Positions 9,169 through 27,667 of a stretch of 32,000 bases of DNA are shown here, piece after piece. Under the pieces are notes generated by a model. It worked only from the letters and a program-made list of their open reading frames with translations. It searched no databases and was not told the origin of the DNA. Every line of letters begins with the position of its first letter. Position 1 is the first letter of the stretch. The translations under genes were made by a program, and so were the position numbers. The DNA comes from Planctopirus limnophila DSM 3776 (GTDB lineage: Bacteria > Planctomycetota > Planctomycetia > Planctomycetales > Planctomycetaceae): NCBI RefSeq assembly GCF_000092105.1, contig NC_014148.1, positions 5,220,001-5,252,000 of the forward strand. Direction: 5' to 3'.

Positions 9169-9193
9169 GATCGTGCCATAAGATGTCAGTATA

Positions 9194-9788: not shown

Positions 9789-10760
9789 ATGGGAATGTCG
9801 CGCAAGGCATTTACACTGATTGAACTGCTCGTGGTCATAGCCATTATTGCCGTGTTAATTGCTTTGTTGCTGCCTGCGGTACAACAAGCTCGCGAAGCGG
9901 CCCGCAGGACGCAGTGCCGCAATCAACTCAAACAATTGGGCCTGGCCGTTCACAATTATGAATCTTCGTTCGGGTGTTTGCCTCCCGGACAGATTCGGAT
10001 CGATTTTGCCACATCGCCACGCGTGCGCGGCTGGTCGTTGTTTGTGCAGTTGTTGCCTCAGTTTGACCAGGCGCCGCTGTACAATTCGTGGGATTTTGCT
10101 GATCCCCTAGCCAATGCGAATGGGGGAGCGAGTTCACGAACAGCCACCATCTTGCCGATGTTACTCTGCCCTTCAGATATCATTCCTCAAAATCCGGTGG
10201 TTTCATCGACGCGGTACTATGCCATCAGCAGTTACGGTGGGAATGGTGGTTCTCAGACACACCCACCCGCGGCCATTCGAGGAGATGGCGTGTTCGCATC
10301 CAGCGGTTCTTCAACGCCGACTTTCCCGCTGGTACGAATCAAAGACATTACTGACGGTACGACAGCAACACTGCTCTTTGGCGAACGTAATCATGTCGAT
10401 CGCAACTACGATACGTATGCGGCTCAAGGTTCCACCTGGGCTCTCGAACCGATGGGACAGTACGGCTGGTGGGCCCCTTCCGGCGGTATGTTTGGATTGA
10501 GTGATGTCACTCTCAGTACACTTGCACCTGTCAATTATTCAATTCCCGTTGCTTTCGGGCAGGCTGGTGCGGCCGATCAGACGACGTTTGTCAACGACTG
10601 GGATCCAAAACGTGTCGGGGCCCTGGGAAGTCAGCACACCGGGGGTTGTCATGCGGCGTTATGCGATGGCTCCGTTCGATTTCTGTCTGAGAACATGGAT
10701 CGACTGGTGCTGGTAAGATTAGGCACACGCAGTGGCGGTGAGACTATCGGTGAGTTTTAG
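9789..10760 (+). CDS. DUF1559 protein: prepilin-type N-terminal cleavage/methylation signal plus C-terminal H-X9-DG motif (paralogue 1)
   Basis: N-terminus [59 protein letters not shown] (type IV pilin-like class III signal). C-terminal HTGGCHAALCDGSVRFLSENMD is exactly H-X9-DG. Confidence 0.92.
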   Translation: MGMSRKAFTLIELLVVIAIIAVLIALLLPAVQQAREAARRTQCRNQLKQLGLAVHNYESSFGCLPPGQIRIDFATSPRVRGWSLFVQLLPQFDQAPLYNSWDFADPLANANGGASSRTATILPMLLCPSDIIPQNPVVSSTRYYAISSYGGNGGSQTHPPAAIRGDGVFASSGSSTPTFPLVRIKDITDGTTATLLFGERNHVDRNYDTYAAQGSTWALEPMGQYGWWAPSGGMFGLSDVTLSTLAPVNYSIPVAFGQAGAADQTTFVNDWDPKRVGALGSQHTGGCHAALCDGSVRFLSENMDRLVLVRLGTRSGGETIGEF

Positions 10761-11128
10761 ACATTCGAAGCCGTGATGAGCATTGCGATGGGCGTTCTCT
10801 TGCAGAAATTGGGACTTTTCTTTGGCTGATTGGCATCGAATGACGAGTTTCGAGTGAAAATTCCCGGCATTGAACTCGGGACTGTTGCCTGTCTTAGGGA
10901 TGGCGGGCACGATAGAAGGTGCTTTTATTGCCCTCGCCCGATTTTTCAGTGAAAGTCAATGCTGTGGTTCACGGTTCGAACTTCGCTCACCGCGGTACAT
11001 TTTATTCTCACTCCCATCGTCAGAATGAAACTTTCCCTCGGCAGTCGTCAGATGCTTTTCATTCCGCATGGTCTTCTCATGCAGCGTCCAGCAATAGATT
11101 CTGGGGCAGTTCGGTTCAGTTGGCCCAC

Positions 11129-12898
11129 ATGGTCAGTGTCTGGAGTTTCGCGATTCTTTGCCTGATCGTATTGAGTGGGTGCCCTGCCAAAACCCCTGTC
11201 AACAAAGAGAGCGAACCATCGGCCCAGGCCGACAAATCGGTTGGTACTGCCCGGCAGACCGCCAAAATTCTGGACGGAGCCCTCCATCAGTTACGGCCTG
11301 AAAATCTGGGCATTGATTCCGATTTGAAGACAGCTATCCCTGTGCTCAATACGTGGATCAAGATCCGCAAGGAATCAGAAGCTTTGCCGACCGTTTCTGA
11401 AAAGACGTTAGCGTTCTTCGGTGAAGCTCAGAAAGAGATACTGGAATCGGTCATCTTTGATAATGCCGACGGCACTCACATTCGCGACTCGATTCTCTTT
11501 GACGAAGTCGCAGGACATGTCACCACAGGTGCCAGCAGCGATACCGAGCGTGTGAACCGCGTATTTTTCTACTGTCTGAGAAACGTCAGCCTGCTGAGCG
11601 AAAGTGAAGAAGAGCTGCCACTGGGCGCTTACGACAGTTTGTTTCTGGGACGTGGAACGGCGTTAGCCCGGGCCAGTGTGTTTTTTGAAATTATGCGGCA
11701 ACTACGCATTGATGCGTTCGTGCTCGCAGAAAAACCAGTCGATGCTCTGGGCGAAGAGTGGTTGATCGGTGTGCTGGTCGATGGAAAAGTACTGGTCTAT
11801 GACCCGATCATTGGCTTGCCGATTCCACCTGGCAAATCGCCTTCACTGCTGGTGAACCAACCTGTGGCGACATTGGCAGAACTGGAAGCTCATCCCGAGT
11901 GGTTGGCTCTCCTCTCGCCACGTAAAGATCAGCCTTATCGTCTCAGCACAGAAAGTGTGGCCAAGCTTAAACCGATGGTTGTGACAGATCCCCGCTGGTC
12001 GGCCCGGAGAATGTTGTTTCTGCAGGAATCACTGACAGGAAATAACTCTTCGCTGGTCGCACAGGCGCTCTTTGGTGGCGAAGGCGAGCCGGGATTGTGG
12101 GATCGAGTATCTGGCAGCCACTCCCGTTGGAAAGAGTTACCACCTGTTGCCTGGCCATATCCTGAAAATCGGCTGCAGAAAATGGGCAAAATGACACCCA
12201 CGATGGCACAACTGCTGCAAGATTCTTTCCGACCCTTTGAAGCACCCGTCGAAATGGTGGTCGATCCGAAAACAAAGCAGATGTCAGTGGGTTCCTCGCT
12301 TTTTCGCCAGTTCCGCACACGAATTTTGCAGTTGGGGGGAGAATACTCCCAGGCGATCTCTGCTTATGTGACAATCCGGCAACTTTCGGCAATACCTGGT
12401 GCCTATCCACCGAATATTGAGCGAGTGCATTTGATTGCAGCCGAAGATGCCTTTTTCTTCAGTGCCATCAGCAAAATTGAAGATGGAGACATCAAGGGTG
12501 GCGTGGCTTTGCTGACGGAATACATCAATCGATACCGCACCAGAGGACGATGGCGATCAGTTGCCAGAGTCGCGTTGGTCGATGGCATGCTCGAACTGGG
12601 CGACCTTAAGGGAGCGAGAAACGCTCTCGATCTGCCGATTTCGCAGGATCCTTATCGCACCTTGGTGACATTGATCAAGAACTCGCTGCCTGCCGCGAAT
12701 GAGGCGGAATCCAAAGCTCCAGCAGGCGAAGGTCAACCGGCGGCGGTTAAGCCTGCCGACAGTCAGCCTGTTGAAACAAAACCAGCCGCAGCAAAAACAG
12801 AACCAGCAGCAGACAAGGCCACCGAACCACCGGCGACGGAACCCAAACCAAACGAACAAAAGTCCGAAGAACCAAAGCCAGAAGAAGCCCGCAGCTGA
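11129..12898 (+). CDS. Large lipoprotein of unknown function with a P/A/E/K-rich C-terminal tail
   Basis: The in-frame Met at 11129 gives MVSVWSFAILCLIVLSGCPAK, a lipobox L-S-G-C. The 70 upstream codons of the longest ORF (from 10919) look non-protein-like. A central segment resembles a degenerate transglutaminase-like core, and the C-terminal half is helical-repeat-like. The last roughly 70 aa are low-complexity (KPAAAKTEPAADKATEPPATEPKPNEQKSEEPKPEE). Confidence 0.7.
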   Translation: MVSVWSFAILCLIVLSGCPAKTPVNKESEPSAQADKSVGTARQTAKILDGALHQLRPENLGIDSDLKTAIPVLNTWIKIRKESEALPTVSEKTLAFFGEAQKEILESVIFDNADGTHIRDSILFDEVAGHVTTGASSDTERVNRVFFYCLRNVSLLSESEEELPLGAYDSLFLGRGTALARASVFFEIMRQLRIDAFVLAEKPVDALGEEWLIGVLVDGKVLVYDPIIGLPIPPGKSPSLLVNQPVATLAELEAHPEWLALLSPRKDQPYRLSTESVAKLKPMVVTDPRWSARRMLFLQESLTGNNSSLVAQALFGGEGEPGLWDRVSGSHSRWKELPPVAWPYPENRLQKMGKMTPTMAQLLQDSFRPFEAPVEMVVDPKTKQMSVGSSLFRQFRTRILQLGGEYSQAISAYVTIRQLSAIPGAYPPNIERVHLIAAEDAFFFSAISKIEDGDIKGGVALLTEYINRYRTRGRWRSVARVALVDGMLELGDLKGARNALDLPISQDPYRTLVTLIKNSLPAANEAESKAPAGEGQPAAVKPADSQPVETKPAAAKTEPAADKATEPPATEPKPNEQKSEEPKPEEARS

Positions 12899-12995: not shown

Positions 12996-13823
12996 TCAAT
13001 TGTTCGCACCACCTGATTCCCAGCCAGCAACGACTGCATCAGGAGCGAGGACGAAGATCTCGACGCGGCGATTCTTCTGGCGATTCTTGTCGTCGGAATT
13101 AGGTGCCAGCGGTTGGAACAGGCTATACCCTGCAGCACCCATCCGCTGTTCAGCTAAACCCGATTTTTTGAGTGCCAGCACCACCGAGTTTGCGCGATCG
13201 GTCGAGAGATGCCAGTTGGTGGGATGTTTATCAGCCACCGCCTTCCGCGAGATGGGTTTGTCGTCAGTATGCCCGACAACCAGCACCTTCAAATGTTTGG
13301 AATCAGCACTGTTCATAATGCGGGCAAATTCCTGCAACAGGGCGTAGGCTTCGGGTCGAATCTCATCACTTCCTGAGGCAAAGAGCAGATTCTCCTGGAA
13401 CTTGCTGACACCCGTCTGAGGATCAAATTCGAAATCGGGGTATTTGCGGCGAAGCTCTTCCATGCGTTGATTGGCATCTGTCGAGAGTGGGTTTTTCGAA
13501 CTGCTGGTCAGCATGTTCTTGACTTTGTCTTCCAGACTCGAGTTGGCTGCCAGCATGTTATCCACCCGCTGATTGGCGAGTTCGAGTCCATTGCGAAGTG
13601 TCGCGTTTTGCTGTTCGAGCTGTACCTTTTCAGCCATGAGTTGAGACAGATTGCCCTGGAACTGATTGCGTTCCATCGCCAGTCCCTGGTACTGCTGGTA
13701 GAGCTGACGGGAGTGCAGCTGGCTCTGGCGCAGCATCCTCTTTTCACGGCAGTGACAGCCGCTCTGCATCGCGACAACGAGGCAAAGAATGGCGAGAACG
13801 AAGCAACGTAAATACGGGCCCAT
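12996..13823 (-). CDS. OmpA/MotB-family peptidoglycan-binding lipoprotein with an N-terminal coiled coil
   Basis: Lipobox VAMQSGC. Q/L-rich coiled-coil segment. The C-terminal OmpA_C-like domain reads LKVLVVGHTDDKPI...NWHLSTDRANSVVLALKKSGLAEQRMGAAGYSLFQPLAPN...NRQKNRRVEIFVL. Confidence 0.87.
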   Translation of the reverse strand: MGPYLRCFVLAILCLVVAMQSGCHCREKRMLRQSQLHSRQLYQQYQGLAMERNQFQGNLSQLMAEKVQLEQQNATLRNGLELANQRVDNMLAANSSLEDKVKNMLTSSSKNPLSTDANQRMEELRRKYPDFEFDPQTGVSKFQENLLFASGSDEIRPEAYALLQEFARIMNSADSKHLKVLVVGHTDDKPISRKAVADKHPTNWHLSTDRANSVVLALKKSGLAEQRMGAAGYSLFQPLAPNSDDKNRQKNRRVEIFVLAPDAVVAGWESGGANN

Positions 13824-13904: not shown

Positions 13905-14110
13905 CAATGGATGGAAGGCGAAAGGTTGGACAGGAATTGAGGAATACAGGCAGGGATCAAAGTGAGAGCAGAAGGCGAGAAAGAAATGAAACTACAGCCA
14001 GAGATGGCGGATAGCTTTCGATGATGAACAGGTTTGATGAACAGGAAAGGTGAAGGCGTAAGCAGAAGAGAATTCGGAAGCAAGAAGACGAGAGATGAGG
14101 AGGGTGAAAG
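13905..14110 (+). other. Purine-rich (A/G) noncoding tract inside a 555-nt gene-free gap. It contains an 11-nt direct repeat.
   Basis: My hand count gives 64 of 80 bases as A or G in 13911-13990 and 58 of 70 in 14041-14110. The direct repeat TGATGAACAGG occurs at 14022-14032 and 14035-14045. The only ORFs here are S/L/F/P-rich pyrimidine-strand artefacts. Confidence 0.7.
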
Positions 14111-14290
14111 GCATTAACTTGAGTCAATTTTCGAGGCCAGCGGCCAAAATGACCGATCTGGTAGAGCAAGATGTAAGAGAATCGGCGGATTTTGCCAAGT
14201 CGAGTTCTCAAGAAACTCGCCAGTGTGAGATAAGCTCTGATTTTCCAGCGATTTATGCCGATCGATGGCAAGATGTCTTTACGTGACCCA

Positions 14291-14332
14291 CAATAAAAAG
14301 TGGGCCTGGCAACGAATTGACAGACCCACTTT
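14291..14332 (-). terminator. Probable intrinsic terminator downstream of the 63-aa gene
   Basis: Minus-strand reading: AAAGTGGGTCTG-tcaattcgttgc-CAGGCCCACTTT followed by TTATTG. This is a 12-bp stem with one mismatch, and its 3' arm runs into a T-rich stretch (CTTTTTATT). It begins about 47 nt after the stop at 14379. Confidence 0.55.
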
Positions 14333-14378
14333 GGGAGTACGAGTGCTGATCACTCAGGATTTTGTCAAATCCTGACGA

Positions 14379-14570
14379 TTAGCGGCTGCCACGGAACCAC
14401 TCGCGGATCCGCTCGTTTTTGCGGCGTTCGAGTTCCATCAGGCGGGCAAAGAATCCTGTACGGGTGGTACGGTTGTTGACAACTTCCATGCGGGCGTCGG
14501 CCGCTTCAATCTGGCCACCCAGAACGAGGCTGGCGGACATGACCAGAGCAGCAAAAGCAGTGCGAAGCAT
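14379..14570 (-). CDS. Small secreted protein (63 aa), unknown function
   Basis: Signal peptide MLRTAFAALVMSASLVLGGQIEA/AD followed by a basic, probably helical peptide (FFARLMELERRKNERIREWFRGSR). A terminator-like hairpin lies downstream. No family recognised. Confidence 0.5.
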   Translation of the reverse strand: MLRTAFAALVMSASLVLGGQIEAADARMEVVNNRTTRTGFFARLMELERRKNERIREWFRGSR

Positions 14571-14831
14571 TGAATTGATTCCTTAGTTCGATCCATCGAT
14601 CTCTTCTCGGCGATTCATGCCGAAAACACAGTGGGAATATCGACGTTTTGTCCATTCGTCTGAGAATCCCGTTGCTGATCAAGCTGCTAAACGACTTGTC
14701 CCCTCACCAAAATGTCGAATTTGCGGGTTGTAATGACACCCGTCATGCGGTGTCTTGCAGCACCTAATTCATTGCCTGAGAATCTCTTAAGGGTATTCAA
14801 GTAAAGCAGCGAGCCTTGGGGCAAACTGGAA

Positions 14832-15719
14832 TCAGGTCTCGTTGGGCGACTTATGTTCTGGAGATGACTGCTGCGAGAATTCGTTGAGCATGAAGAGCAG
14901 CGATTTGTTGTCGAGGAACGGCTTGTAGCCGAAGGTCGAAAAGAAGACCTTCCCGGCGGGATTGATGAGGAAGGTTCCATGTTTCAGATCGGACGGACGT
15001 TCAGCCGTTTCCGGGATAAAGACTCCATACTGCTGGGCAATCTTGTTCTCAGGATCTGACAAGACGGTAAAGTTGAATGCGCCGTATTCCTCAAAGCGGG
15101 CTTTGGTCTCTTCGGGGGGATCGGCACTGATCGCCACGATCCGGGCACCCAGTTCCTGAAAGTACTTCAGGTCTTCCTGAAGTCCAAAGAGTTGTGCGAC
15201 ACAATGACTGCAGTCGTAACCATAGTAAAAGACAAGAACGACCGGGCCTTGAGCGAGCGTTTCCTGCAAGGAGACCAGCTGCCCTTCGTGGTTCTTTAAC
15301 TGGAAATCTGGGGCCGGCTGCTTCAGCAAAGGATGGGGACGCGATTCGGCCACAATGAACTGTCCATCAGCCAGCAGTTCACGCAAAGGTTCGGAGAGCC
15401 TGGGCTTCTTGACCGCCTCCAGGTAAGCCTCAGCATCCTGTTTGATGTTCCCCGTGGGGATCAACCCATACTTGAGACAAATCTCCCGGCACTGCTCCAG
15501 CACCTGGAGAGATGCGCTTTGAGAAGGGGTCGGAGTGAGCAGATGATAGGTAAAGATCACCCCATAGAAGCTCACGATCACCGCTGCAATGACAAGAAAC
15601 ACCCTCCGACGAAAACGGGTTTGCTGCTGTCGTAGAAGTGCCGTATTTGAGGCTGAGTCAGGAGTGTCAATCGTAGACATAAAACGTTTCCCTGGGTGTA
15701 GCCAGTTGATGAATGACAA
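14832..15719 (-). CDS. Membrane-anchored thioredoxin-fold protein (AhpC/TSA-Redoxin/TlpA-like) with a CSHC active site
   Basis: N-terminal TM anchor (VFLVIAAVIVSFYGVIFTYHLL). The redoxin core reads PAPDFQLKNHEGQLVSLQETLAQGPVVLVFYYGYDCSHCVAQLFGLQEDLKYFQELGARIVAISADPPEE...FTVLSDPENKIAQQYGV. Confidence 0.85.
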   Translation of the reverse strand: MSFINWLHPGKRFMSTIDTPDSASNTALLRQQQTRFRRRVFLVIAAVIVSFYGVIFTYHLLTPTPSQSASLQVLEQCREICLKYGLIPTGNIKQDAEAYLEAVKKPRLSEPLRELLADGQFIVAESRPHPLLKQPAPDFQLKNHEGQLVSLQETLAQGPVVLVFYYGYDCSHCVAQLFGLQEDLKYFQELGARIVAISADPPEETKARFEEYGAFNFTVLSDPENKIAQQYGVFIPETAERPSDLKHGTFLINPAGKVFFSTFGYKPFLDNKSLLFMLNEFSQQSSPEHKSPNET

Positions 15720-15807
15720 TGATCATTCTTCAGCATGACAGTTTCAGCAAATGAATGAACAGAGCTCGGAGAAAATTCGTAATCGATCGCTTCCAGCCAG
15801 GTCGTAA

Positions 15808-16230
15808 TTACTTCGTTTGAGTATTGATATCGAGATCAATCACTCGATCTGTGGGCTTCCAGTTCAGCATAATCGTCGAGGTTTCGGGCTTAAGAAATTC
15901 CTTTCGAATTCGCACAGGGGCTCCCGCCGACTCGATGGTGCACTGGTATTCTCCCGGGGGAAGGCTTAAGGGGCCCACCGCTTTCGGCTGAACCAGTGCA
16001 AACCAGCCATCGTCGCGGGTGGTGCCAAACCCGCAAAGTCGGAAACTGCTGCCCTCTTTCTGGTAGAGCGAGATTTGAATTTCACTGACTGTTTGCCCAT
16101 CCAGACGGAGAACACCTTCGGTACCGCCGCTAATCGGCTGGGGGCCACAACCGTGGAAAACTGTGGCCATCATCAGGACAAGACAAACGGCAATCTTCCT
16201 GAGGTTTGAAATCGTGACTGTCGAATACAT
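15808..16230 (-). CDS. Small lipoprotein with a carboxypeptidase-regulatory-like (transthyretin-like beta-sandwich) domain
   Basis: The Met at 16230 gives MYSTVTISNLRKIAVCLVLMMATVFHGCGP (lipobox). GVLRLDGQTVSEIQISLYQ...GFGTTRDDGWFALV...LPPGEYQCTIES fits the G-x-V-x-x-d-G-x-P ... T-d-x-x-G-x-F ... G-x-Y pattern of these domains, which in Planctomycetes commonly sit next to DUF1559 genes. The longest ORF extends to 16326. Confidence 0.6.
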   Translation of the reverse strand: MYSTVTISNLRKIAVCLVLMMATVFHGCGPQPISGGTEGVLRLDGQTVSEIQISLYQKEGSSFRLCGFGTTRDDGWFALVQPKAVGPLSLPPGEYQCTIESAGAPVRIRKEFLKPETSTIMLNWKPTDRVIDLDINTQTK

Positions 16231-16342
16231 GTCAATTCTTCTTGGATGGGGATGAATACTCATGGCATTGCATTGTGCGGCCATTCTCAAAGAGGGCTGG
16301 CGGTTTGTGGGTTTCGTTTTCAGCATGTGTGGATTGAACGAA

Positions 16343-17812
16343 CTAAGAAGCCAGCCCCAGCCAGTTTCGTAGTGGTGGAATTCTTCTCAGAATGACTCGT
16401 TCAATCAGCAGGACAGCCAGCAGCGAGACTCCGAACATGGGGAGCAGAATCCCCAAAAGGATCACGAAAAGCATGAAGGGTAGGGCAAAAAGGACTTCAT
16501 GACGCATCGCGATTTTTGATTCGGCAGGGGCACCTAACGTGCTTGGCGCTCGTCGTCGCCACCACATCAGTGGCCCCGTACAGGACAACAGGATCAGGCC
16601 AAGAGCCGTAAGTAAGCCGAGAAGTTGATTGGGCCAACCAAACAGTCGTCCTTCATGGAGGGCAATTCCAATACTGACAACGCGATCAATCCAGTGACGA
16701 TCAGAGAAAGTTTCGCGAGAGAGAATCGAACCTTGCATGGCGTCGATTTTCAGAGTCTCCCGCCAGGGACGATTCGCAGTCATTGATTTCACGGTCCAGG
16801 GCTGTCGCTCAGAAGCGGGTGGAGTCAAGATCACGGGATGTGGCAACTGGAGCGGCTCCACGACTTGTACAACGAGTGGCAACTGCGCCAACGTTTCGGG
16901 CGAGACCGGGGCGGCATTTCGTCTTCTGTTCGAGCGATCCGACTTTGTGGGAGATTCTCCGGCGTTCGAGCTGGATTCTCGTGAGGCATGCCCGGCATGT
17001 TCGCCATCAGCAGTTGTGGGAACGGTGGGTGATGCCTGTTTGGCCCCGGAAGTAACGGGTCGTGTCTGAGGGTTCTCCGAGCGATTCGACCAATCCTGCT
17101 GTGCGACGGACGTGCCCGTGAGCTTGCGGATCTCACGGAAGTAATCACCCCAGAAGTGAGACCATGGCAAACCGGAAACCAGCAGAATGAGTGCAAAGGC
17201 GGAGATCCAGAATCCCGTGACTCCATGCAGATCGCGGAGAAAACGCTGCCTTCCACTTGTGAAACGAGGGTAGAGAATCCCGCCGAAGCCACGCAGATGA
17301 CGGGGCCACCAGAGATAGAGTCCCGTAAGAATCATGATGATTGTCCAGGATGCAGCGAGCTCAACCAGATGAGAACCGTCCTCTCCAAGCATCAGTTCAC
17401 CATGCAACCGGAATATCTGGCGCATGAGTCGATCCTGTTCGGGAACTGCATGCAAAATGGCCAGCGTCTGTGGATGTACATAGATCCGCCAGTTCTTGCC
17501 GGCATCGCTGACGACAATTCGACTGGCATGATGGGGTAAGACGGGAAGCTCATAAGAAACAAAACGACTCTCTGGCTTTGACGCGAGAGCCGCTTGAACT
17601 TGCTCTGACAGACTTGCTGGCTGACCAGTCAGCACCAGATGGTTGTATGGCTGATCGAGCCAGTCTTCGATCTCGGCTTTGAAGAGATAGACGATTCCCG
17701 AGAGTGACAGAATGATGACAAACGGGACCGTGAAAAGCCCTGCATAGAAGTGCCATCGCCAGACAGTGCGATAGGCAGGCAATGCATATCTGAAGAATTC
17801 GCTGGTAGACAT
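16343..17812 (-). CDS. PepSY-associated TM-helix protein (PiuB/FoxB-like iron-regulated membrane protein family)
   Basis: The N-terminal YRTVWRWHFYAGLFTVPFVIILSLSGIVYLF, the later FLRDLHGVTGFWISAFALILLVSGL and the C-terminal IGIALHEGRLFGWPNQLLGLLTALGLILLSCTGPLMWWRRR are hallmark PepSY_TM repeats (conserved H residues preceding TM helices). Confidence 0.88.
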   Translation of the reverse strand: MSTSEFFRYALPAYRTVWRWHFYAGLFTVPFVIILSLSGIVYLFKAEIEDWLDQPYNHLVLTGQPASLSEQVQAALASKPESRFVSYELPVLPHHASRIVVSDAGKNWRIYVHPQTLAILHAVPEQDRLMRQIFRLHGELMLGEDGSHLVELAASWTIIMILTGLYLWWPRHLRGFGGILYPRFTSGRQRFLRDLHGVTGFWISAFALILLVSGLPWSHFWGDYFREIRKLTGTSVAQQDWSNRSENPQTRPVTSGAKQASPTVPTTADGEHAGHASRESSSNAGESPTKSDRSNRRRNAAPVSPETLAQLPLVVQVVEPLQLPHPVILTPPASERQPWTVKSMTANRPWRETLKIDAMQGSILSRETFSDRHWIDRVVSIGIALHEGRLFGWPNQLLGLLTALGLILLSCTGPLMWWRRRAPSTLGAPAESKIAMRHEVLFALPFMLFVILLGILLPMFGVSLLAVLLIERVILRRIPPLRNWLGLAS

Positions 17813-17943
17813 CTTCTTAATCGACCTCTCTTCGGAAAGCAGATCTCAGCCCGGCCTTCCCACGCAAAAAAACTGTGTACAACGGCATGCACCAGGATGA
17901 GGCATAGGCCTTGCTCATATACTTGAAAAAGTCTATGAGAAAG

Positions 17944-17983
17944 GGTGCTGTTCTCTACATCTGGTTATGTAGAGAACAGCACC
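17944..17983 (-). terminator. Perfect 17-bp stem hairpin immediately downstream of DUF1559 paralogue 2. Probably an operon terminator.
   Basis: ggtgctgttctctacat (17944-17960), loop ctggtt, atgtagagaacagcacc (17967-17983). On the minus strand it is followed by CTTTCTCATAGACTTTTTC, which is only moderately T-rich. It lies 23 nt after the stop at 18006. Confidence 0.6.
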
Positions 17984-18005
17984 ATCAGCAAGCCCTGTTC
18001 AGTGA

Positions 18006-19109
18006 CTAGAACTCACCCAGAACCTCACCACCGTTGGTACTGTGAAGTCCACGATGAATTCGGGTGTCAATGTTGTCACCCAGGAAACGTACTGTGCCAT
18101 CGCCCATGAGTGCATGCGCCCCGCCCACGTGGTAGCTGCGCGGCCCAAAATAGCCGGTAAAGTGAGTCACCACATCAGGAATACGGCTATTCGGTGTGCT
18201 ATAGCCATTTGTGAGCGTACTGATCGCTCCTGAATGTGCCCAGGAGGTCCCACGGCCTCGCAGAGCCAGACTGGCGGCTCCTCGCCAGTTTGTCATGGTA
18301 GGCCATACCGCATTCAGATCCGGGTTTGCGATAAAGCCCTGGGCATTGGCAAACGATGACCAGGCCCCACCCGTGGGAGGCATCCCTTGAGACGTCCCGA
18401 GTGTCGTACCTACACCTGTAGAACCATTCATCGTGAGCTGATAAGGAAAGGGGGGTAGGGTACCCGCCGGGAATGTGACATCACTTCCGGTACTACGAAC
18501 CGACTCACTCATGAAAACGGTGTTCGACGTTCCATCAGTGACATCGCGCATGCGGACATTGCTGTTTTCATAGACGATGCCGTCTGTCTTCCAGCGAAGG
18601 TCGTAGTTGGTGCCTGTGCCGCTACCATAACTGACGAAATAGTTCGTACCGGCATAGATCGCACCGCCGGCACCAGTATTCTGGGTTGGCGCAGGATCAC
18701 TGGGGCAGAGCAACATGGCGAGAGGAGTTGCAAATGCGGCAGCAAAGTTTGGGTTGGGCACCAGGCTACTAAATGGCCCGGTAAATGCTGGTTGAGTAAA
18801 GTCCAGAGTATTCTGGAGGACAGCCTGATCAAAGTAAGGGAGTAAACGGGCTTGTGGCGAGAACCCCTGGGTATTTGGCAGGTAATTCTGGGCATTCACC
18901 ATGGGGAGCATTGTAAAGGTGCTCTCATAGTTATGCAGTGCGAGGCCGAACTGCTTGAGGTTATTACGACATTGCGTTCGTCGCGCCGCTTCTCGCGCCT
19001 GCTGAACGGCTGGCAACAGCAAAGCAATCAGGATGGCGATGATCGCGATCACCACCAGGAGCTCAATGAGTGTAAAGGCTTTTCGAATTTGTGAGGATCG
19101 CATTGACAT
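18006..19109 (-). CDS. DUF1559 protein, prepilin-type signal plus H-X9-DG (paralogue 2)
   Basis: [59 protein letters not shown]-terminal [22 protein letters not shown] is H-X9-DG. Confidence 0.92.
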
Positions 19110-19147
19110 GAAACGTTTCCTGTAAAGATTTGAATCGTAATGTTGAC

Positions 19148-20179
19148 TTAGAATTCGCTGACGACTTCACTACCAGAACGTGTGGCAATGTTCCGCCAGA
19201 TCGTGGCGTCGATGTTTTCACTGGTGAATCGAACTCCCCCATCGCCCATGAGGGTATGGACACCGCCTGTATGCCGACTGCGGGCGGCCTTGAAGCCTTG
19301 CGCCACCCAGAAGTAGCAGTCGTAGCGCCGGCTGTTCGGTGTGAAGTAGTGGTTGTAAGCGGTGTTCTCGTACGCCTGACCCGCCCAGACTCGATTTCGA
19401 CTGGCCACGAAGCGGGCGATACTCGCGGGCCTCGCCTGATCACAATTGGCAATTGTCACACTCGTGGGAGGGCTGACCAATGCCATATGCGTCTGTGCAT
19501 CAGGACTCTCAGTAGAAGCCGGGTCGGCACCACCAATCCCTAATAGACTTTCGGAGCAAAGAACCGTGTTCGATAAGCCATCCGTACAATCGGCAATCCT
19601 TCGCCAGGAGATGGAACTGAATAGACCATCGGCACGGTCGTCGCTCTGACCATCATCACTGATATCGGCCACATTGTTTATCCCAGAACCCATGCAGGCC
19701 ATATAGTTGGAAGGAGCAGAGTCAATCACCCCTGTGGGACTAGAAACATAGTCCGAGCGATCACTCGGACAAAGATAGGTCGGAATCTTTGTCATGATCG
19801 TATTGACGTGCATGGCACGTGGCGGCTGGCCACCTCCGGGCGGATAGAGGGACCAGTTCAGATCCAACTGATTGAGCGTGTTGGCCTGATCGACGTAAGG
19901 GAGGATATACGCCAGGAAACTCCAGCGCATCGTGGTGCTTTGTGCGACGTTGTTGTGTCCGTTCCAGCCGCAGGGAAAGCGGCCGAATGTCGATTCATAG
20001 TTGTGCAGAGCGAGGCCAATCTGCTTGAGATTGTTACGGCACTGCGTTCGCCGGGCTGCTTCCCGAGCCTGTTGAACGGCGGGAAGCAGCAGAGCAATCA
20101 AAATGGCGATGATCGCGATCACCACCAGGAGTTCAATGAGTGTGAAGCCTCGGTGACGAGGAGTATCAGGAACTTTCAT
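19148..20179 (-). CDS. DUF1559 protein, prepilin-type signal plus H-X9-DG (paralogue 3)
   Basis: Start chosen at the Met at 20179 ([66 protein letters not shown]). C-terminal [22 protein letters not shown] is H-X9-DG. The longest ORF extends to 20308. Confidence 0.9.
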
Positions 20180-20311
20180 AAAGAGGTCTTTCTCGGGATC
20201 AATGTTGTATAGATAGTCACTTGACGACCGGCGCACTTTGAGTGAGTAGGTTTCTACCCTGCGGCCGGAGTGACGGTATGAACGATACATGCCAAACTCA
20301 GCCTGCAATCA

Positions 20312-21112
20312 TCAGCGGGCGATGTTCAGCGTGAGTGTGGCGGCGTAGTGAGAGCGTTCGTACTTCTCACCGGTTTCGTCATCAGCGGCATGATGGACGA
20401 CGACCAGGTAGTAGTTGGCTTCCGCCGGTGTGAACGTGGCCTTGCCAGAGGCATCGGTCTTGCGTTCAAAGTTTGGGTCAAAATCGGCGGCGAGCTCTGC
20501 ACCGCGGGGGATAAACGACATGGTCGCATCGGCCAGCGGTTTCCCCTTGAGAAGCACCTGAACTGTGATCGGCTCGCCCGCCTTGGCTGTGGCCGGATTG
20601 CTCTGCGGTACCAGTTCGATGGGCTGGCCCAGCGGCTTCAAAGGATCGACACCTCCAGCCTTTTCACCGACCTGGAAGTAGCATTTCGCGTTGCGATAAG
20701 CGCGCGTGGTGCCGTGGATCGTATCGAGAGACTGAGCAGCGACATAGAGGCCCGGCTGATGGGCGACCTGCCGCACCGACCAGAAGCCTTCTTTTGCGGC
20801 ATTACCAATATCGGCCACGCGCGACTTGAGATCCTGCTGGTTTCCATCGGGTGAGATCAGGTCAAAGCTGACCTTTTCAATGCCGATCTTGCTGGCGAGT
20901 TTGAAATCGCGGTGTTCGTTGCCGTGATTACCGAGCATGAGATCGATATGAACCACTTCGCCGGGAGCTACCTGGGCGACATTGGTCTGAACCCAGGTAT
21001 CGTGAGCGCTAGCGATGGTACTGATAGCCGCCACGCTTAAAGCCAGAATGGCATGTGCCAGAATCGAAGTCGCACTTGCCTTATGATTGATCATCATTAA
21101 CGAAGCCAGCAT
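20312..21112 (-). CDS. DUF4198-like periplasmic protein (family associated with Ni/Co uptake; beta-sandwich)
   Basis: Signal peptide ending IASA/HDTWVQ. A mature N-terminus of the H-D-x-W type is typical of DUF4198. The body is beta-rich, and the C-terminal segment (GEPITVQVLLKGKPLADATMSFIP...DASGKATFTPAEANYYLVVVHH) resembles the transthyretin-like part of the family. A strong SD (GAGGAGGG) sits 5 nt upstream of the ATG. Confidence 0.65.
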   Translation of the reverse strand: MLASLMMINHKASATSILAHAILALSVAAISTIASAHDTWVQTNVAQVAPGEVVHIDLMLGNHGNEHRDFKLASKIGIEKVSFDLISPDGNQQDLKSRVADIGNAAKEGFWSVRQVAHQPGLYVAAQSLDTIHGTTRAYRNAKCYFQVGEKAGGVDPLKPLGQPIELVPQSNPATAKAGEPITVQVLLKGKPLADATMSFIPRGAELAADFDPNFERKTDASGKATFTPAEANYYLVVVHHAADDETGEKYERSHYAATLTLNIAR

Positions 21113-21282
21113 ACAACCCTCCTCGGGTATTGAGATGTCAGTGAAATTGAACGAACTCTCAGGCCATGCAGAGCAAGACCATTCGTGAACTGAGACTCTC
21201 GGGGCAGAAAACGACCAACACGCACAAAGCGAGTGCGGTTCAAGCCATCAGAGCGTCTGCCCGGGGCATCCAGAATGGGGCG

Positions 21283-21310
21283 GTTGATGGGCTATTCATT
21301 GCCCATCAAC
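21283..21310. repeat. Perfect 10-bp inverted repeat GTTGATGGGC-N8-GCCCATCAAC in the long leader upstream of the DUF4198 gene
   Basis: Read directly: 21283-21292 gttgatgggc, 21301-21310 gcccatcaac. No T-run follows on either strand, so an operator or RNA structure is more likely than a terminator. Confidence 0.6.
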
Positions 21311-21531
21311 GCATGGACGATCTCGTCTCGTGTGAAGCTCAATTGAGAGCGCAGCGAGTGCCAGCAGAGCCGAAACTGCGCACCAGGTCGAGATTCAACG
21401 ATGGCGTTACATTGCGGATAAGGCAGGCTTGCTCAGAGCCGCAAGCATGGCACTTATCTTCGCTGGAACGCGAAATCGATTGAGGATCTTCGGCGCAGTA
21501 AGGCACACGGAATGAGATCGTGAGAGAGCGT

Positions 21532-22395
21532 TCAACCGGGAGGAGAGAGCCGGTTGTAGAAGACTTCACAGGGAATTCCCTGCGAAGGAGCGAAGGTTGA
21601 CTGATGTGGTGACCACGGTTGCCACGACATGGCGATCGGTGGCGTGGTCAGGGGCTCTGTGAGCATGGTCCACATGGAGCCGGCACCTTGACACTTCAGA
21701 GTATCTAGCCACGGTACCGATGAAGTTGGTGCCGATTCTGGCTCAGACAGCGACGACTTCTGGGCCTGCAATTGACTTGCTGATGGATTTGCGGGTGAGG
21801 AGGGAGCACAGCAGGCAGGCTTGCTGGCAACAGGAACGGGCTCTGTTTTGGTGCCTTTCTGAGTGACCGAGCAACAGCTTGAAGAGGATGTGTTCTTAGT
21901 TTCTACAAGAATTGTTTTCGCAGTCTTCGGGGGAGTCAATTCGACGGAAGATCTGCGTGAGCAGAGAGTGCCATCGTCTCCGCGAGCCGCCTGCATGCGG
22001 AGTTCGCGTAAGGAAGTCGAAATTTGCGATCCGTGGGCAGATGTTTTTTCGGCAGTGTTTTGCAATTGGGACGATCTGGTTTTTCCCATAGAACAGCATG
22101 AGGAAGCCTGGGAGGGAACTGGTGGAGTTGGCTTCTCCACGAGAGCTTCCGGGAGGTGCATGCCATTGAGCTTCGCCCAGAGTTGTCGTTCCACGGGTGT
22201 ATAGCAACAGCAGTTTTTCCAGCATTGCGTCGCCGAGGCACAGCCACATTTGTGACCTGCGCAAGGGAATGCGCCGCCGGACATGAGACTCAGCGAGTTG
22301 GTCGAGAATCCCCATGCGCCGATGCAATAAGAGACAATGAGCAGGACGCCAGTGAGTTTTCTTCGCCAGTCGCCAGTGGCCAGTTCCCGGATCAT
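21532..22395 (-). CDS. Cysteine-rich, single-pass membrane-anchored protein of unknown function (putative metal- or redox-centre-binding)
   Basis: The Met at 22395 gives MIRELATGDWRRKLTGVLLIVSYCIGAWGF (N-terminal anchor). This is followed by FPCAGHKCGCASATQCWKNCCCYTP and then three CC doublets in S/T/P-rich linkers (SSCCS, SSSCCS, PACCAPS). The conserved-looking C-terminal segment is LKCQGAGSMWTMLTEP...GIPCEVF. The longest ORF extends to 22509. No family recognised. Confidence 0.6.
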   Translation of the reverse strand: MIRELATGDWRRKLTGVLLIVSYCIGAWGFSTNSLSLMSGGAFPCAGHKCGCASATQCWKNCCCYTPVERQLWAKLNGMHLPEALVEKPTPPVPSQASSCCSMGKTRSSQLQNTAEKTSAHGSQISTSLRELRMQAARGDDGTLCSRRSSVELTPPKTAKTILVETKNTSSSSCCSVTQKGTKTEPVPVASKPACCAPSSPANPSASQLQAQKSSLSEPESAPTSSVPWLDTLKCQGAGSMWTMLTEPLTTPPIAMSWQPWSPHQSTFAPSQGIPCEVFYNRLSPPG

Positions 22396-22681
22396 TTTTT
22401 GACCGGCACCCCATACGACTAGACAGAATGAAACGAAACGTTCACTCGCAATCTGGCATCGATGGTGGGTTGAAACCAACGGGCGGGACATAAATATCTG
22501 CTTGGGCACCCTGACGACGGAGTGATCGCATCATTTTTGCTCGACTGAAACTCAATAGTTTATCCGCGTGCATGTGGATTGGAATCTTCCACCAGCTACG
22601 AATCAGCGAATTCCCATGGATGGGACATCATAGCGAAGTCTAAGGCGAGGGTATCGAAATCACTGTAACATAATACTGAGA

Positions 22682-24043
22682 CTAGCTTTGCGTTTCTTCC
22701 TGTGGTTTGGCCTCGGCTTCGTTCGAGGATTCAGGAACGATGCGACTCACAAGCAGCCGGTCGATCCGCGGGCCATCCATATCGACCACTTCGACGCGGA
22801 GTTGGCTCCATTGGATGATATCTCCAATTTTGGGAGGTCGCTTAAGCAGGGCGACGACCAGTCCCGAGATGGTGGCAATGCCTCGAGGAGGAGGTTCAGG
22901 CCATTTGCTGAATTCCAACGCTTCCTGCAGTTCATGCAGGTTCAGAGCAGCATCTGCCAGCAGACTGCCATCAGCACGTCGGACAATCAGTTGCTCGTCA
23001 TCGCGGCGATGCTCGTCATGAATTGAGCCGACGAGGATTTCCATGACATCTTCGAGGGTGACCATCCCTTCGGTACCACCATATTCGTCGAGCACGATCG
23101 CGAGTTGAGTCCGCTCTTTCTGGAAGAGTTCGAGCAGTTTCGAGATGGTCAGCGTTTTGGGAATAAAGAGCGGGGCGCGCATCACCCGGCGGATATCGAG
23201 AGACCTGCCCAGATAGTTTTCGAGAAAGACGTCTTTGATGTAAATGAAGCCGACAATCCGATCGATGCTCCCTTCGCAAACAGGTACCCGGGAGAAGCCC
23301 GACATGGCCATGGCTCCCAGGACTTCTTCGGGGGGTGTATCGACGTCGATCGCATCAATATCGATTCGTGGCCTGAGAATTTCGGCGGCTGTCCGCTCGC
23401 GCATTTTTAAAGCCTGCTGGGCCATCTGCTGTTCGGCCTCGTGCAGAATTCCGGCTTCATGACCGGCATCAATCAGGTGCTGAATGTCTTCGACCGAGAC
23501 ACTGTCGCGGATCTCGGTTTTCTGGCCCAGAATGAGCAACACGGATTTGGTACAGACGCGCAGGAACCAGACAAATGGCTGGGCAATGGTCTGGAGAAGT
23601 ACCATGGGCAAGGCCACCCAGCGGGCCATGAACTCAGCATTCTGCAACGCGACTCGCTTGGGAACGAGTTCGCCCAGAATCAGCGAAAAGAAGGCAATCC
23701 CGACCGAAATGACACCCAGAGAAATCGTTTCACTACGCTGCTGAATCCAGGAAACAGGGATTTGTCCAATGAGATGCGAGACCTCGCTGATGAAGCTGGC
23801 ACCACCAAAGGCGGCGGCAAACGTACCGACGAGTGTGATCCCAACTTGAACAGTGGGTAAAAACCGATCGGCGTCACTGGAGAGCTTGAGAGCCGCTTTG
23901 GCACCACGATCGCCTTCCTGTGAAAGCTGTTCCAGCCGCCCGCGTTTGGCAGTCAGAATCGCGATCTCCGCACCGGCGAAGAATCCGTTGAACAGAATCA
24001 GCAAGAGGATGAGAGCCAGCTCGCCGAAAAGTCCCCATTCCAC
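22682..24043 (-). CDS. CNNM/TlyC/CorC-family protein (DUF21 membrane domain, CBS pair, CorC_HlyC domain), a putative divalent-cation efflux or regulation protein
   Basis: GTG start. LILLLILFNGFFAGAEIAILTAKRGRLEQL is the DUF21 signature. A CBS pair region (MRERTAAEILRPRIDIDAIDVD...GFSRVPVCEGSIDRIVGFIYIKDV...) follows, and the C-terminal transporter-associated domain reads GDIIQWSQLRVEVVDMDGPRIDRLLV. Confidence 0.9.
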   Translation of the reverse strand: MEWGLFGELALILLLILFNGFFAGAEIAILTAKRGRLEQLSQEGDRGAKAALKLSSDADRFLPTVQVGITLVGTFAAAFGGASFISEVSHLIGQIPVSWIQQRSETISLGVISVGIAFFSLILGELVPKRVALQNAEFMARWVALPMVLLQTIAQPFVWFLRVCTKSVLLILGQKTEIRDSVSVEDIQHLIDAGHEAGILHEAEQQMAQQALKMRERTAAEILRPRIDIDAIDVDTPPEEVLGAMAMSGFSRVPVCEGSIDRIVGFIYIKDVFLENYLGRSLDIRRVMRAPLFIPKTLTISKLLELFQKERTQLAIVLDEYGGTEGMVTLEDVMEILVGSIHDEHRRDDEQLIVRRADGSLLADAALNLHELQEALEFSKWPEPPPRGIATISGLVVALLKRPPKIGDIIQWSQLRVEVVDMDGPRIDRLLVSRIVPESSNEAEAKPQEETQS

Positions 24044-24329
24044 CCTGTTCGCTCCCTATTCAGGCCGGTCTGCCATACCAGCACTGAGAGTTCTCTTCCA
24101 TCCCCTGGGCCATCGGCCGTTTCATGCCTGCCAAGCGTCTTCTAAGGAGTAGGAAAATGCAATGGGTGATTGCCAGAAGTCGCGAGACTCCCGGAATTTA
24201 ACTGCCATCAATCCATCGAGGTGTATGGATCTGTCTTCGTGGTAAGAGATGCGACGGGCGTGCAGGAACCCTTTCGAACGGAGAGTCACCACACAACGGC
24301 TGCGTCTTGATGGGCGATGCAACCGCCAC

Positions 24330-25064
24330 TTACTTCATGGCGAATTCATCTTTCACGGTGAATTCATGTAATTTGTCAGAAGTTTGAGGTTTGCTGGTGA
24401 GCTTCTGGCCTTGTGAGGAGCCCACTTGTGGCCTGTAGATCGAGAGTCGAGCCAGCGGTCGTTTACGAACTGCCTGATAGATGAAGACGGGGAAACCCAT
24501 GAAGGTTGGTGCCTGTGGATCTTCGAGCAATTCGAGGCCGAGTCGGCGGTAATATCGGTTCAGGCGTGTACGCGATTGATAGATGGTGTCACCGAGAAAA
24601 CCAGGCAAGCGCTTGCCGGTCGCTGCGTAACTCCAGCCATTGACTAACGATCTCAAGCCGTAGATGCGGGTTTTCCAGTTGGGATGCTTGGCGGCATAGA
24701 GCAAAAAGTAGCCCGCCCCATGAAAGGAAAAGCGAGCCATGCCACCGGGCTTAAGCACACGAGCCATCTCTTTCATGGCGATGGCAGAACGCGTGTAGGG
24801 CAAAACGACTTTCGAAATCACGCCGTCAAAGCTGCTGTCGGGAAAAGGGAGATGTTCGGCAAACCCCTGGACGGCTTCCAGTTCATACGAGCGGACTGTT
24901 TCGACACAGGCGGGATCGGGATCGATGCCGACTGGCTCGTGACCTCTTCTCAGCAGCTCCAGCATCTGTTCTCCCGGCCCACAACCCACATCGAGAACCC
25001 GGCTGGCCGGTGGAAACTCAAAATGACTGAATTCATGCAGATGATAAGGTTCAAGAATGCTCAT
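24330..25064 (-). CDS. Class I SAM-dependent methyltransferase (Methyltransf_11-like)
   Basis: VLDVGCGPGEQMLELLRRGHEPVGIDPDPACV (motif I plus acidic post-I residue) and FDGVISKVVLPYT...MARVLKPGGMARFSF (motifs II and III). Confidence 0.85.
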   Translation of the reverse strand: MSILEPYHLHEFSHFEFPPASRVLDVGCGPGEQMLELLRRGHEPVGIDPDPACVETVRSYELEAVQGFAEHLPFPDSSFDGVISKVVLPYTRSAIAMKEMARVLKPGGMARFSFHGAGYFLLYAAKHPNWKTRIYGLRSLVNGWSYAATGKRLPGFLGDTIYQSRTRLNRYYRRLGLELLEDPQAPTFMGFPVFIYQAVRKRPLARLSIYRPQVGSSQGQKLTSKPQTSDKLHEFTVKDEFAMK

Positions 25065-27604: not shown

Positions 27605-27667
27605 AAGGCGTTCATCGAACGCCACAGGATTGGGATCAAGTTTTGACTCCGTGCGAGTTCATGAATT

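Follow-up and report, generated by a model that had tools for sequence, protein, structure and literature searches.

Pilin-like DUF1559 proteins are tied to putative metal-handling envelope proteins in a gene module found across Planctomycetota

Introduction

Leader genes with cysteine motifs placed ahead of metal-related envelope genes are known from two systems that come closest to the gene block treated here, a run of seven minus-strand genes in a 32,000-nt stretch of Planctopirus limnophila DSM 3776 (hereafter the window, to which all coordinates are relative), which includes two pilin-like DUF1559 genes next to genes for a DUF4198 and a PepSY_TM protein. In CutF-like sensors, copper on the exported nascent chain leads to stalling at a C-terminal polyproline motif and a downstream stem-loop melts (10.1101/2022.11.11.516240; 10.1101/2025.02.05.636593); these Cys-rich leaders mostly precede copper-resistance genes, e.g., those of Cus/Czc resistance-nodulation-division (RND) components (10.1101/2022.11.11.516240). 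The copper-regulated cruR-crtA-crpH operon of Bordetella pertussis has the architecture DUF2946>receptor>PepSY_TM, and CrpH has been proposed to reduce copper in the periplasm for the supply of haem-copper oxidases (PMC13038864; PMC12914433; PMC9426467). A further PepSY_TM protein, FoxB, is a ferric-siderophore reductase (10.1101/2021.01.28.428567). For DUF4198, IsDUF4198 of Ideonella sakaiensis was shown to bind nickel via His1 and His18 (PMC12537917), and Zcp of Neisseria gonorrhoeae binds zinc as a periplasmic metal buffer (PMC12663993).

DUF1559 represents the largest paralogous family of planctomycete genomes, with 68 copies in P. limnophila, two of which are essential (PMC10632474), and about 40-100 copies in other species (PMC8567305). 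The neighbours of DUF1559 genes in Tuwongella often encode type I/II signal peptides, and the DUF1559 proteins were recovered in membrane fractions (PMC8567305). The searchable literature yielded neither a function nor a metal link for DUF1559, and a literature search on TonB-dependent receptors and crateriform structures in Planctomycetes likewise returned nothing. A preliminary description of the block, made from its sequence, had proposed an envelope module for metal acquisition and redox chemistry built around the pilin-like proteins. In this study, we compared the block with related loci. We put a probability of roughly 55% on the reading that it is the form taken in Planctopirus by an envelope module which handles a transition metal throughout the planctomycetes and consists of two sub-modules, these being apart or arranged differently elsewhere; of this module we infer the functional steps, the direction of regulation and the metal. 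The orthologue-specific coupling to DUF4198, PepSY_TM and a sensor-like leader gives DUF1559 a first testable role, in a genetically tractable organism.

Results

All seven open reading frames (ORFs) of the block (14832-22395) lie on the minus strand at the position given in the preliminary description and are overlapped by short plus-strand ORFs only (e.g., 20348-20854). In the order of transcription, they encode a Cys-rich protein (CysRich), a DUF4198 protein, two DUF1559 proteins (A and B), a PepSY_TM protein, a small lipoprotein and a redoxin. The earlier calls of DUF4198, PepSY_TM, two H-X9-DG prepilin-like DUF1559 proteins and a membrane-anchored CSHC redoxin were confirmed by hidden Markov model (HMM) searches, these five of the seven family assignments lying above Pfam or NCBIfam cut-offs, while CysRich and the lipoprotein matched no family of either library.

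Conservation of this neighbourhood was assessed with DUF4198 as anchor, using an alignment of 28 homologues and a scan of one genome per species, which gave 80 loci (L-numbers below are labels of related loci) that were annotated via phmmer or HMM searches with the proteins of the window. In 67 of the 80, DUF4198 shares an uninterrupted co-directional run with a DUF1559 gene. Judged from the flanks of the same loci, where 22 DUF1559 genes occur in 1009 kb (0.022 per kb), adjacency would be expected in about 5%; the corresponding binomial P of ~4e-72 ignores phylogenetic dependence and is overstated because the genomes are related. The loci cover Planctomycetaceae, Pirellulaceae, Gemmataceae, Isosphaeraceae and one Phycisphaerae metagenome-assembled genome (MAG), with variable gene order. 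Moreover, the DUF1559 proteins adjacent to DUF4198 are closer to the copies of the window than distant paralogues in the same loci are (median 235 vs 152 bits, P = 4e-4), so that the association concerns particular orthologues and not any paralogue. The linkage of DUF4198 and DUF1559 is real and old. The two outcomes that would speak against the preliminary description and can be checked computationally, namely absence of the linkage from relatives and assignment of the DUF4198 or PepSY_TM proteins to other families, were both looked for and not found.

Within these runs, CysRich is present in 46 of the 80 loci, at the head of the run, followed in frequency by the redoxin (14/80), the lipoprotein (13/80) and PepSY_TM (7/80). 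The most common arrangements are CysRich>DUF1559>DUF4198 (18 loci) and DUF1559>DUF4198 (14 loci), next to the order of the window, CysRich>DUF4198>DUF1559 (five loci), and CysRich>DUF1559-B>lipoprotein>DUF4198 (four loci). L035 and L074, with a DUF4198 at 46% identity to that of the window, have the seven families side by side but reordered (CysRich>DUF1559-A-like>redoxin>DUF4198>DUF1559-B>PepSY_TM>lipoprotein), and six of the seven are contiguous in L071 and L075. The seven genes, which had been presented as one block, are not conserved as a unit of seven: the block of the window is two sub-modules joined, one of CysRich, DUF1559-A, DUF4198 and redoxin and one of DUF1559-B, PepSY_TM and lipoprotein, and the conserved cores are CysRich>DUF1559>DUF4198 and CysRich>DUF1559-B>PepSY_TM>lipoprotein. 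There is firm support for a conserved module, present throughout the planctomycetes, in which particular DUF1559 orthologues are coupled to metal-handling proteins downstream of a CutF/CruR-like leader.

Individual loci contain further genes. Downstream of CysRich in L061 (2935-9730), an OEP, a CusB-like HlyD_D23 and an ACR_tran RND pump gene, i.e., a Cus-like heavy-metal efflux system, lie inside the module between DUF1559 and DUF4198. Two T2SS-F (GspF/PilC-like) platform genes are located just upstream of redoxin>DUF4198 in L048 (5812-7712), which hints at a pilus or type II secretion system (T2SS) assembly machine linked to the module in some genomes. Between lipoprotein and DUF4198, L008 (6918-9895) and L029 (6937-9927), both from Fuerstiella/Planctomycetaceae MAGs, encode a PQQ_2/BamB-like beta-propeller as well as a protein of ~430-480 aa without Pfam match. 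In L083 (Schlesneria, CP124747.2), a DUF4198-Kelch fusion, a PQQ-type beta-propeller and hemP are found near CysRich>DUF1559-B, ~5-8 kb upstream of DUF1559-B.

The PepSY_TM protein (16343-17812, minus strand; PF03929, 4.3e-71) scores 240.6 bits against a Pfam cut-off of 28.8, with an additional weak match to cytochrome b561. Its residues H21, H137, H196 and H386 are invariant in eight homologues and align with the FoxB (PDB 7ABW) motifs LHRY, FHHN, DLHR and IHGG close to the transmembrane (TM) segments, which makes it a putative di-haem transmembrane reductase. The likeness to FoxB-type reductases thus comprises the PepSY_TM architecture and the His residues aligned in four TM-proximal motifs, whereas overall similarity to FoxB is low (E 8.5e-5) and no siderophore receptor is adjacent. 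A further difference is a variable periplasmic insertion at residues ~240-300, which carries a conserved GEHxGH motif (H272/H275; H275 invariant in the eight homologues) and may constitute an additional metal site, not readily seen from the alignment with FoxB.

A survey of metagenome contigs with PepSY_TM as anchor concerned the position held by a receptor in cruR-crtA-crpH. In ten of the 15 best matches (47-53% identity), DUF1559 is located directly upstream, in several cases together with CysRich; the 65 loci from L100 onwards (41-47% identity) all lack an adjacent DUF1559. Eight of the 12 longest loci without adjacent DUF1559 have a same-strand gene for 750-855 aa directly upstream, all five tested genes of this size encode TonB-dependent receptors (two with a CarboxypepD_reg N-domain), and three of four small ORFs ahead of these receptors belong to DUF2946. 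Since the nearest homologues outside the planctomycetes (41-48% identity) show the DUF2946>receptor>PepSY_TM order, DUF1559 occupies the receptor slot in planctomycetes. With these operons, the clustering of PepSY-TM genes with TonB-dependent receptors that the preliminary description had given for Proteobacteria holds, as does its placing of DUF1559 at the corresponding position, which was found for the planctomycete PepSY_TM homologues. The window shares with cruR-crtA-crpH the succession of a Cys-motif leader, an envelope uptake component and a PepSY_TM protein with four haem-type His, and some CrtA operons also contain Sco-type or thiol-redox accessories (PMC12914433). It differs in that the middle gene encodes a pilin-like DUF1559 protein instead of a beta-barrel receptor, the leader is not a DUF2946 protein, and there are additional genes for DUF4198, the lipoprotein and a CxxC redoxin.

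The leader gene of the window, CysRich (21532-22395, minus strand; alternative GTG start at 22509), encodes 287 aa with 17 Cys and has no Pfam match even at E<=10; the protein matches a hypothetical protein of P. limnophila with 100% identity. Its earlier designation as Cys-rich and anchored stands in the first part; the second is likely, as a hydrophobic stretch of 17 residues (14-30) following RRK, which stays under the Kyte-Doolittle threshold of 1.6, could serve as membrane anchor. Behind it lie the Cys cluster C45-x4-CGC-x2-A-x2-CW-x2-CCC, predicted to face the periplasm, a Ser/Pro-rich linker with CC pairs, and the end LSPPG-stop. A word-indexed homologue search gave seven proteins, and 50 members were gathered from the loci by HMM. 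These share the N-terminal hydrophobic segment, the motif PC-x4-CGC-x2-A-x2-CW-x2-CCC, a low-complexity linker and a Pro-rich tail, PP(V/T)PPP(R/K) or PPG-stop, with PP in the last 15 residues of 48/50 and PPP in the last 20 of 42/50. In 21 aligned relatives, P44, C45, C50, G51, C52, A55, C58, W59, C62-64 and the terminal PP are invariant. A same-strand gene follows in 49 of 49 cases, with its N-terminal motif within 125-525 nt, and this gene is DUF1559 in 42 and DUF4198 in seven.

By analogy, CysRich is a candidate metal-sensing leader of the CutF/CruR kind. Like CutF of the CutF/CutO pair in Rhodobacter capsulatus, it combines a likely N-terminal export segment and a Cys metal motif predicted to be periplasm-exposed with a C-terminal proline stalling motif (PPP; PPG-stop in the window) and structured RNA before the regulated gene. 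However, at 200-320 aa it exceeds the 150-aa cut-off, has another Cys motif (C-x4-CGC...CW..CCC), no DUF2946 homology and much longer intergenic regions, and the hairpin of its relatives has an anti-Shine-Dalgarno-like loop complementary to a 5' untranslated region (5' UTR) ~0.8-1 kb away. Because of its length and the missing DUF2946 homology, we treat CysRich as an analogue of CutF and not as a member of that family.

Between CysRich and DUF4198, the window has a 419-nt leader (21113-21531, minus strand) with predicted structure. Its minimum free energy (MFE) of -175.4 kcal/mol corresponds to z = -4.72, none of 100 shuffles folding as well, and the predicted MFE fold would bring the CysRich Pro codons and stop (CUCUCCUCCCGGUUGA) into pairing with the Shine-Dalgarno region of DUF4198 (CCCGAGGAGGG). 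Inverted repeats between the CysRich 5' UTR and 3' region of the window were short and unconvincing. An Rfam scan of the window (gathering threshold; E<=1 over 14000-24500) gave no riboswitch or other family, and a sigma-70 promoter scan was uninformative, with fewer matches than in shuffled sequence.

In the relatives, the interval from the CysRich stop to the DUF1559 start contains a two-helix hairpin (R1), with 16 of its 18 bp showing compensatory changes. R1 cells are 91% paired; slid controls stay at 28-54%, and a value this high was seen in 0 of 500 shuffles. The R1 covariance model found 29 plus-strand copies in 26 loci, with scores far above those of the antisense strand; all are CysRich-DUF1559 intergenic and none occurs elsewhere in 1.29 Mb. 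Examples from relatives, not from the window, are L027:8549-8648, L077:8071-8169, L083:7569-7666 and L044:1090-1186. An Rfam scan of seven related loci matched no family, and R1 is a previously undescribed structured RNA. Its loop is anti-Shine-Dalgarno-like (GGCUCGCUCUCCACAA; CCCUCCAA in other lineages) and complementary to a segment of the CysRich 5' UTR, 213-246 nt upstream of the Cys motif. This element, GUGGAGAGCGAGCC or lineage variants, lies just past a TAnnnT box (e.g., L027:7789-7802, L044, L032, L061, L067) and co-varies with the R1 loop from lineage to lineage (20 of 21 testable loci), suggesting a pairing over ~0.8-1 kb that brackets the CysRich ORF; twin inverted operator sites represent an alternative explanation of the complementarity. 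The recurrent GTGGAGAGCGA upstream of CysRich was considered as GTG start codon and rejected, as in-frame stops follow in L029 and L035.

The DUF4198 protein (20312-21112, minus strand; PF10670) covers 208 of 209 profile positions with 130.8 bits (cut-off 34; 1e-37). Its predicted signal peptide ends in IASA|HDTW, i.e., with ASA|H, which makes His37 the mature N-terminus. H37, D38, W40, D57, H63, H67 and H240 are invariant in the 28 homologues, H55 (mature position 19) is H or Y, and the C-terminal domain aligns with zinc-binding Zcp (PDB 9MHI, 2e-8). From these features, DUF4198 is a putative periplasmic metal-binding protein. A predicted N-terminal His after the signal peptide and further conserved His are shared with Zcp and IsDUF4198, whereas a GNHGNxH motif is particular to the planctomycete subfamily, most members of which end in CPCC, absent from the protein of the window (end LNIAR). 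The known relatives, moreover, neighbour TonB receptors or NikR and not DUF1559.

The small lipoprotein (15808-16230, minus strand; ORF extendable to 16326) nearly always follows PepSY_TM or DUF1559-B. It had been called a carboxypeptidase-regulatory-like lipoprotein, of which the lipobox (FHG|C, G-C invariant in 14 homologues) is clear, while the fold is weakly supported: Pfam matches were sub-threshold (CarboxypepD_reg PF13620, best E 0.079, in 2/14; TTR_TEN1-4, E 0.06-0.16, in 5/14), hhalign against the two CarboxypepD_reg N-domains of TonB receptors gave 70.5% probability (E 3.9e-5, 50 columns), and a single-sequence AlphaFold2 (AF2) model was too poor for use (predicted local distance difference test, pLDDT, 45). 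The protein is probably all-beta with a transthyretin (TTR)/CarboxypepD_reg-like fold; hhalign found no relation to DUF4198.

For the redoxin (14832-15680, alternatively to 15719; minus strand), AhpC-TSA (5.4e-28) and Redoxin (1.8e-16) matches were obtained together with the CxxC motif CSHC and a TM segment at residues 24-42. With TlpA, ResA and ScoI it has in common the membrane anchor, the thioredoxin fold with CxxC and a borderline SCO1-SenC score (9e-5; 22.9 bits, cut-off 22.8). In contrast to these, its best Pfam family is AhpC/TSA, no NCBIfam equivalog cut-off is reached (ResA 44.6 vs 170 bits, DsbE 21.2 vs 123, SelL-related models also below), and there are no cytochrome oxidase or cytochrome c maturation genes near it.

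The two DUF1559 genes, A (19148-20179, extendable to a TTG at 20308) and B (18006-19109), both on the minus strand, match PF07596 (DUF1559/SBP_bac_10; 1.4e-56 and 1.9e-58, respectively), N_methyl and TIGR04294 (H-X9-DG) above cut-off. DUF1559-A has the prepilin-type leader RG|FTLIELLVV, a head of ~300 aa and the H-X9-DG C-terminus; its best matches (~1e-70) lie within CysRich>DUF1559>(redoxin)>DUF4198 runs, and in most relatives the DUF1559 placed after CysRich corresponds to it. Orthologues of DUF1559-B are 68-84% identical across genera (>100 clusters), and the gene normally stands ahead of PepSY_TM, lipoprotein or DUF4198. With DUF1559-B as anchor, this pattern was kept in five of five long contigs. 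Three of them have PepSY_TM as the next gene, in two cases with the lipoprotein behind it, and one has DUF4198 downstream; an upstream CysRich was confirmed by HMM in three of three tested.

The AF2 model of DUF1559-B (pLDDT 81.7) predicts a long N-terminal pilin helix and a mixed head of ~300 residues. In a Foldseek search against the PDB, pilin helices were the only matches (best E 0.84) and none was found for the head domain; in particular, no periplasmic solute-binding fold appeared, and the solute-binding label in the Pfam name SBP_bac_10 found no support. DUF1559 resembles type II pseudopilins (GspG) and type IV pilins in the prepilin peptidase cleavage and methylation motif and the long N-terminal helix. 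It differs in its ~300-aa H-X9-DG head without PDB match, in the ~68 paralogues per genome (PMC10632474) and in the absence of assembly genes from the window; the GspG equivalog TIGR01710 was not reached (44 and 33.5 bits vs 88.85), with the match confined to the N-terminal helix.

Downstream of DUF1559-B, 23 nt past its stop, lies a perfectly paired 17-bp hairpin (17944-17983, minus strand), a candidate attenuator or 3'-stabiliser. Hairpins common after major pilin genes form the background to this element. Hairpins of at least -20 kcal/mol strength are located just downstream of 11 of 17 DUF1559-B orthologues, compared with 29-31% of other DUF1559/DUF4198 genes, and their sequences are unrelated between loci, which suggests differential expression of the pilin-like gene. 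The hairpin is part of the 193-nt gap between DUF1559-B and PepSY_TM; this gap and the 419-nt gap between CysRich and DUF4198 argue against a single simple uninterrupted operon.

The window contains three DUF1559 genes within its 32 kb. The third (9789-10760, plus strand) is followed by a gene for a 659-aa protein without Pfam match (10919-12898), forming another pair of DUF1559 and partner, and is divergent from an HTH_3 + PBP_like regulator gene (8092-9234, minus strand).

Discussion

In the module proposed here, CysRich would be inserted co-translationally with its Cys cluster in the periplasm and act as a cis-acting sensor like CutF/CruR. Metal occupancy could alter the passage of the ribosome over the polyproline or PPG-stop of CysRich, remodel the leader RNA and thereby set the translation of the next gene, i.e., DUF4198 in the window and DUF1559 in most relatives. 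DUF4198, exported and cleaved to its N-terminal His, might capture a divalent metal, be it within the periplasm or on the surface. The two DUF1559 proteins would be processed as prepilins to form inner-membrane-anchored heads or a short pseudopilus and could do the job of a TonB-dependent receptor by bringing metal or metal-chelate to the inner-membrane machinery, where Cu(II) or Fe(III) would be reduced by PepSY_TM with electrons carried over two haems. Accessory functions may fall to the TTR-like lipoprotein and to the TlpA-like CxxC redoxin, which would maintain periplasmic thiols, e.g., those of CysRich, in the reduced state. Among the candidate metals, copper is the most likely one, at somewhat less than even odds, and is favoured because of the operon homology, the thiol-rich sensor and the Sco/TlpA-like redoxin; nickel, cobalt or zinc appear doubtful, and iron rather unlikely.

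Several observations weigh against this reading. In the sensor part, hhalign of CysRich with four DUF2946 neighbours gave a probability of 1%, i.e., no homology, nearly all CysRich ORFs have ~175-380 aa compared with <150 aa for CutF-like proteins, and the intergenic distances are mostly 200-500 nt, where <100 nt is typical of CutF. The window itself has neither R1 nor its 5' partner: pattern searches gave no more matches than chance, and the top covariance-model match (E 0.18) fell inside the OmpA gene; the pairing in the leader of the window is an MFE prediction only. With respect to the metal, the relatives of DUF4198 prefer nickel or zinc, not copper, and the receptors beside distant PepSY_TM genes could not be assigned to the CrtA type, their best PDB matches being YncD, PqqU and PhuR. 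As the DUF1559 head has no structural match, nothing points to binding of metal or chelate, and since DUF1559 genes generally have genes for secreted proteins at their flanks (PMC8567305), the pairing may reflect a generic role. Finally, PepSY_TM and the redoxin are present in only 7/80 and 14/80 modules, and the complete seven-gene set is exceptional.

Such a generic role would mean that DUF1559 paralogues are substrate-specific pseudopilins of a T2SS-like machine which export or display their neighbour, DUF4198 or the lipoprotein, so that the metal link is that of the cargo and no receptor is replaced. The canonical prepilin leader with its GspG-like N-terminus, the signal-peptide genes flanking DUF1559 and the membrane fractionation in Tuwongella (PMC8567305), the third DUF1559 of the window (9789-10760) preceding an unrelated 659-aa protein, and the T2SS-F genes adjoining redoxin>DUF4198 in L048 would all fit, as would the hairpin behind DUF1559-B, which recalls those behind major pilin genes. 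Yet PepSY_TM, a polytopic inner-membrane protein and hence no cargo, is tightly and specifically coupled to DUF1559-B, DUF1559 stands exactly at the place of the receptor in homologous operons, and the 68-84% identity of DUF1559-B across genera suggests constraint beyond that of a simple cargo adaptor; we consider this option unlikely. That the seven genes are mere co-directional neighbours without shared function, for which the 419-nt and 193-nt gaps, the strong hairpin dividing the block and the continuation of co-directional genes at both flanks could be cited, is contradicted by the linkage of the same families across planctomycete families and orders, despite rearrangement and far over background, and is very improbable.

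Two further explanations accept a metal-related module and differ in what it does. It could serve detoxification in place of acquisition, being induced by metal excess as for cutFOG, with DUF4198 as periplasmic sink and the other components buffering, reducing or exporting the metal. CutF-like leaders are mostly found ahead of copper-resistance genes (10.1101/2022.11.11.516240), Zcp buffers metal and does not import it (PMC12663993), L061 carries its OEP, HlyD_D23 and ACR_tran pump between DUF1559 and DUF4198, and a CNNM/CorC-type exporter gene is located directly upstream of the block in Planctopirus. However, the RND pump occurs in one of 80 loci and the CNNM synteny in Planctopirus only, the characterised PepSY_TM reductases FoxB and CrpH serve uptake or cofactor supply, and the homologous proteobacterial operons carry importers, i.e., TonB-dependent receptors; we regard detoxification as quite unlikely. 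Of comparably low probability is reductive iron uptake, with ferric chelates taken up and PepSY_TM as FoxB-type ferric-siderophore reductase. In its favour, ferrireductase activity is common to FoxB, FhuB, FpvG and HiuB (PMC13038864 and references therein), iron limitation elicits a response of DUF4198 genes in Caulobacter, Alteromonas and Avibacterium (PMC12663993), and hemP lies ~5 kb from the DUF1559-B locus of Schlesneria. Copper, on the other hand, is better suited by the thiol-rich leader and the CxxC/Sco-like redoxin, given Cu(I) chemistry, and DUF2946>receptor>PepSY_TM is a copper-regulated architecture; the window, moreover, contains no siderophore-binding protein, ABC importer or Fur-like gene.

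Taking up the envelope module for a transition metal again, a wider and more speculative proposal, which we hold to be doubtful, is that DUF1559 proteins are the planctomycete substitute for TonB-dependent receptors. Each paralogue together with its partners would then form a substrate-specific uptake device, with DUF1559-A and -B being metal-specific (copper, or iron/nickel) and gated by a new kind of long Cys-rich, polyproline-tailed leader, and in most lineages also by a long-range RNA switch between a Shine-Dalgarno-like element in the 5' UTR and an anti-Shine-Dalgarno-like loop ~1 kb downstream. If true, nutrients would move across a diderm envelope without a TonB-dependent receptor, which would help to account for the expansion of the DUF1559 family. 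Nascent-chain metal sensing of the CutF/CruR type would be extended to a new protein class and phylum, and R1 with its partner would constitute a new cis-regulatory RNA with kilobase-range interaction.

Additional features of the window

Without evident tie to the module, the window encodes flagellar fliP and fliO (1142-2910), a 1269-aa protein with a spermidine-synthase domain (4242-8051) and, at 26987-28420, an ECF-type (extracytoplasmic function) sigma factor followed by a 250-aa ORF without Pfam match. The co-directional run exceeds the seven genes of the block and continues downstream with an OmpA gene (12996-13823) and upstream with genes for a CNNM/CorC protein (22682-24043) and a methyltransferase (24330-25064). 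The co-directional CNNM/CorC gene, directly upstream of CysRich, has CNNM, two CBS and CorC_HlyC domains, and its best NCBIfam model, the polyamine exporter PaeA, stays under the cut-off. Synteny of the flanking methyltransferase, CNNM and OmpA genes is limited to Planctopirus (L002-L004), and the DUF4198 region of the window is 98% identical at the protein level to that of P. hydrillae JC280.

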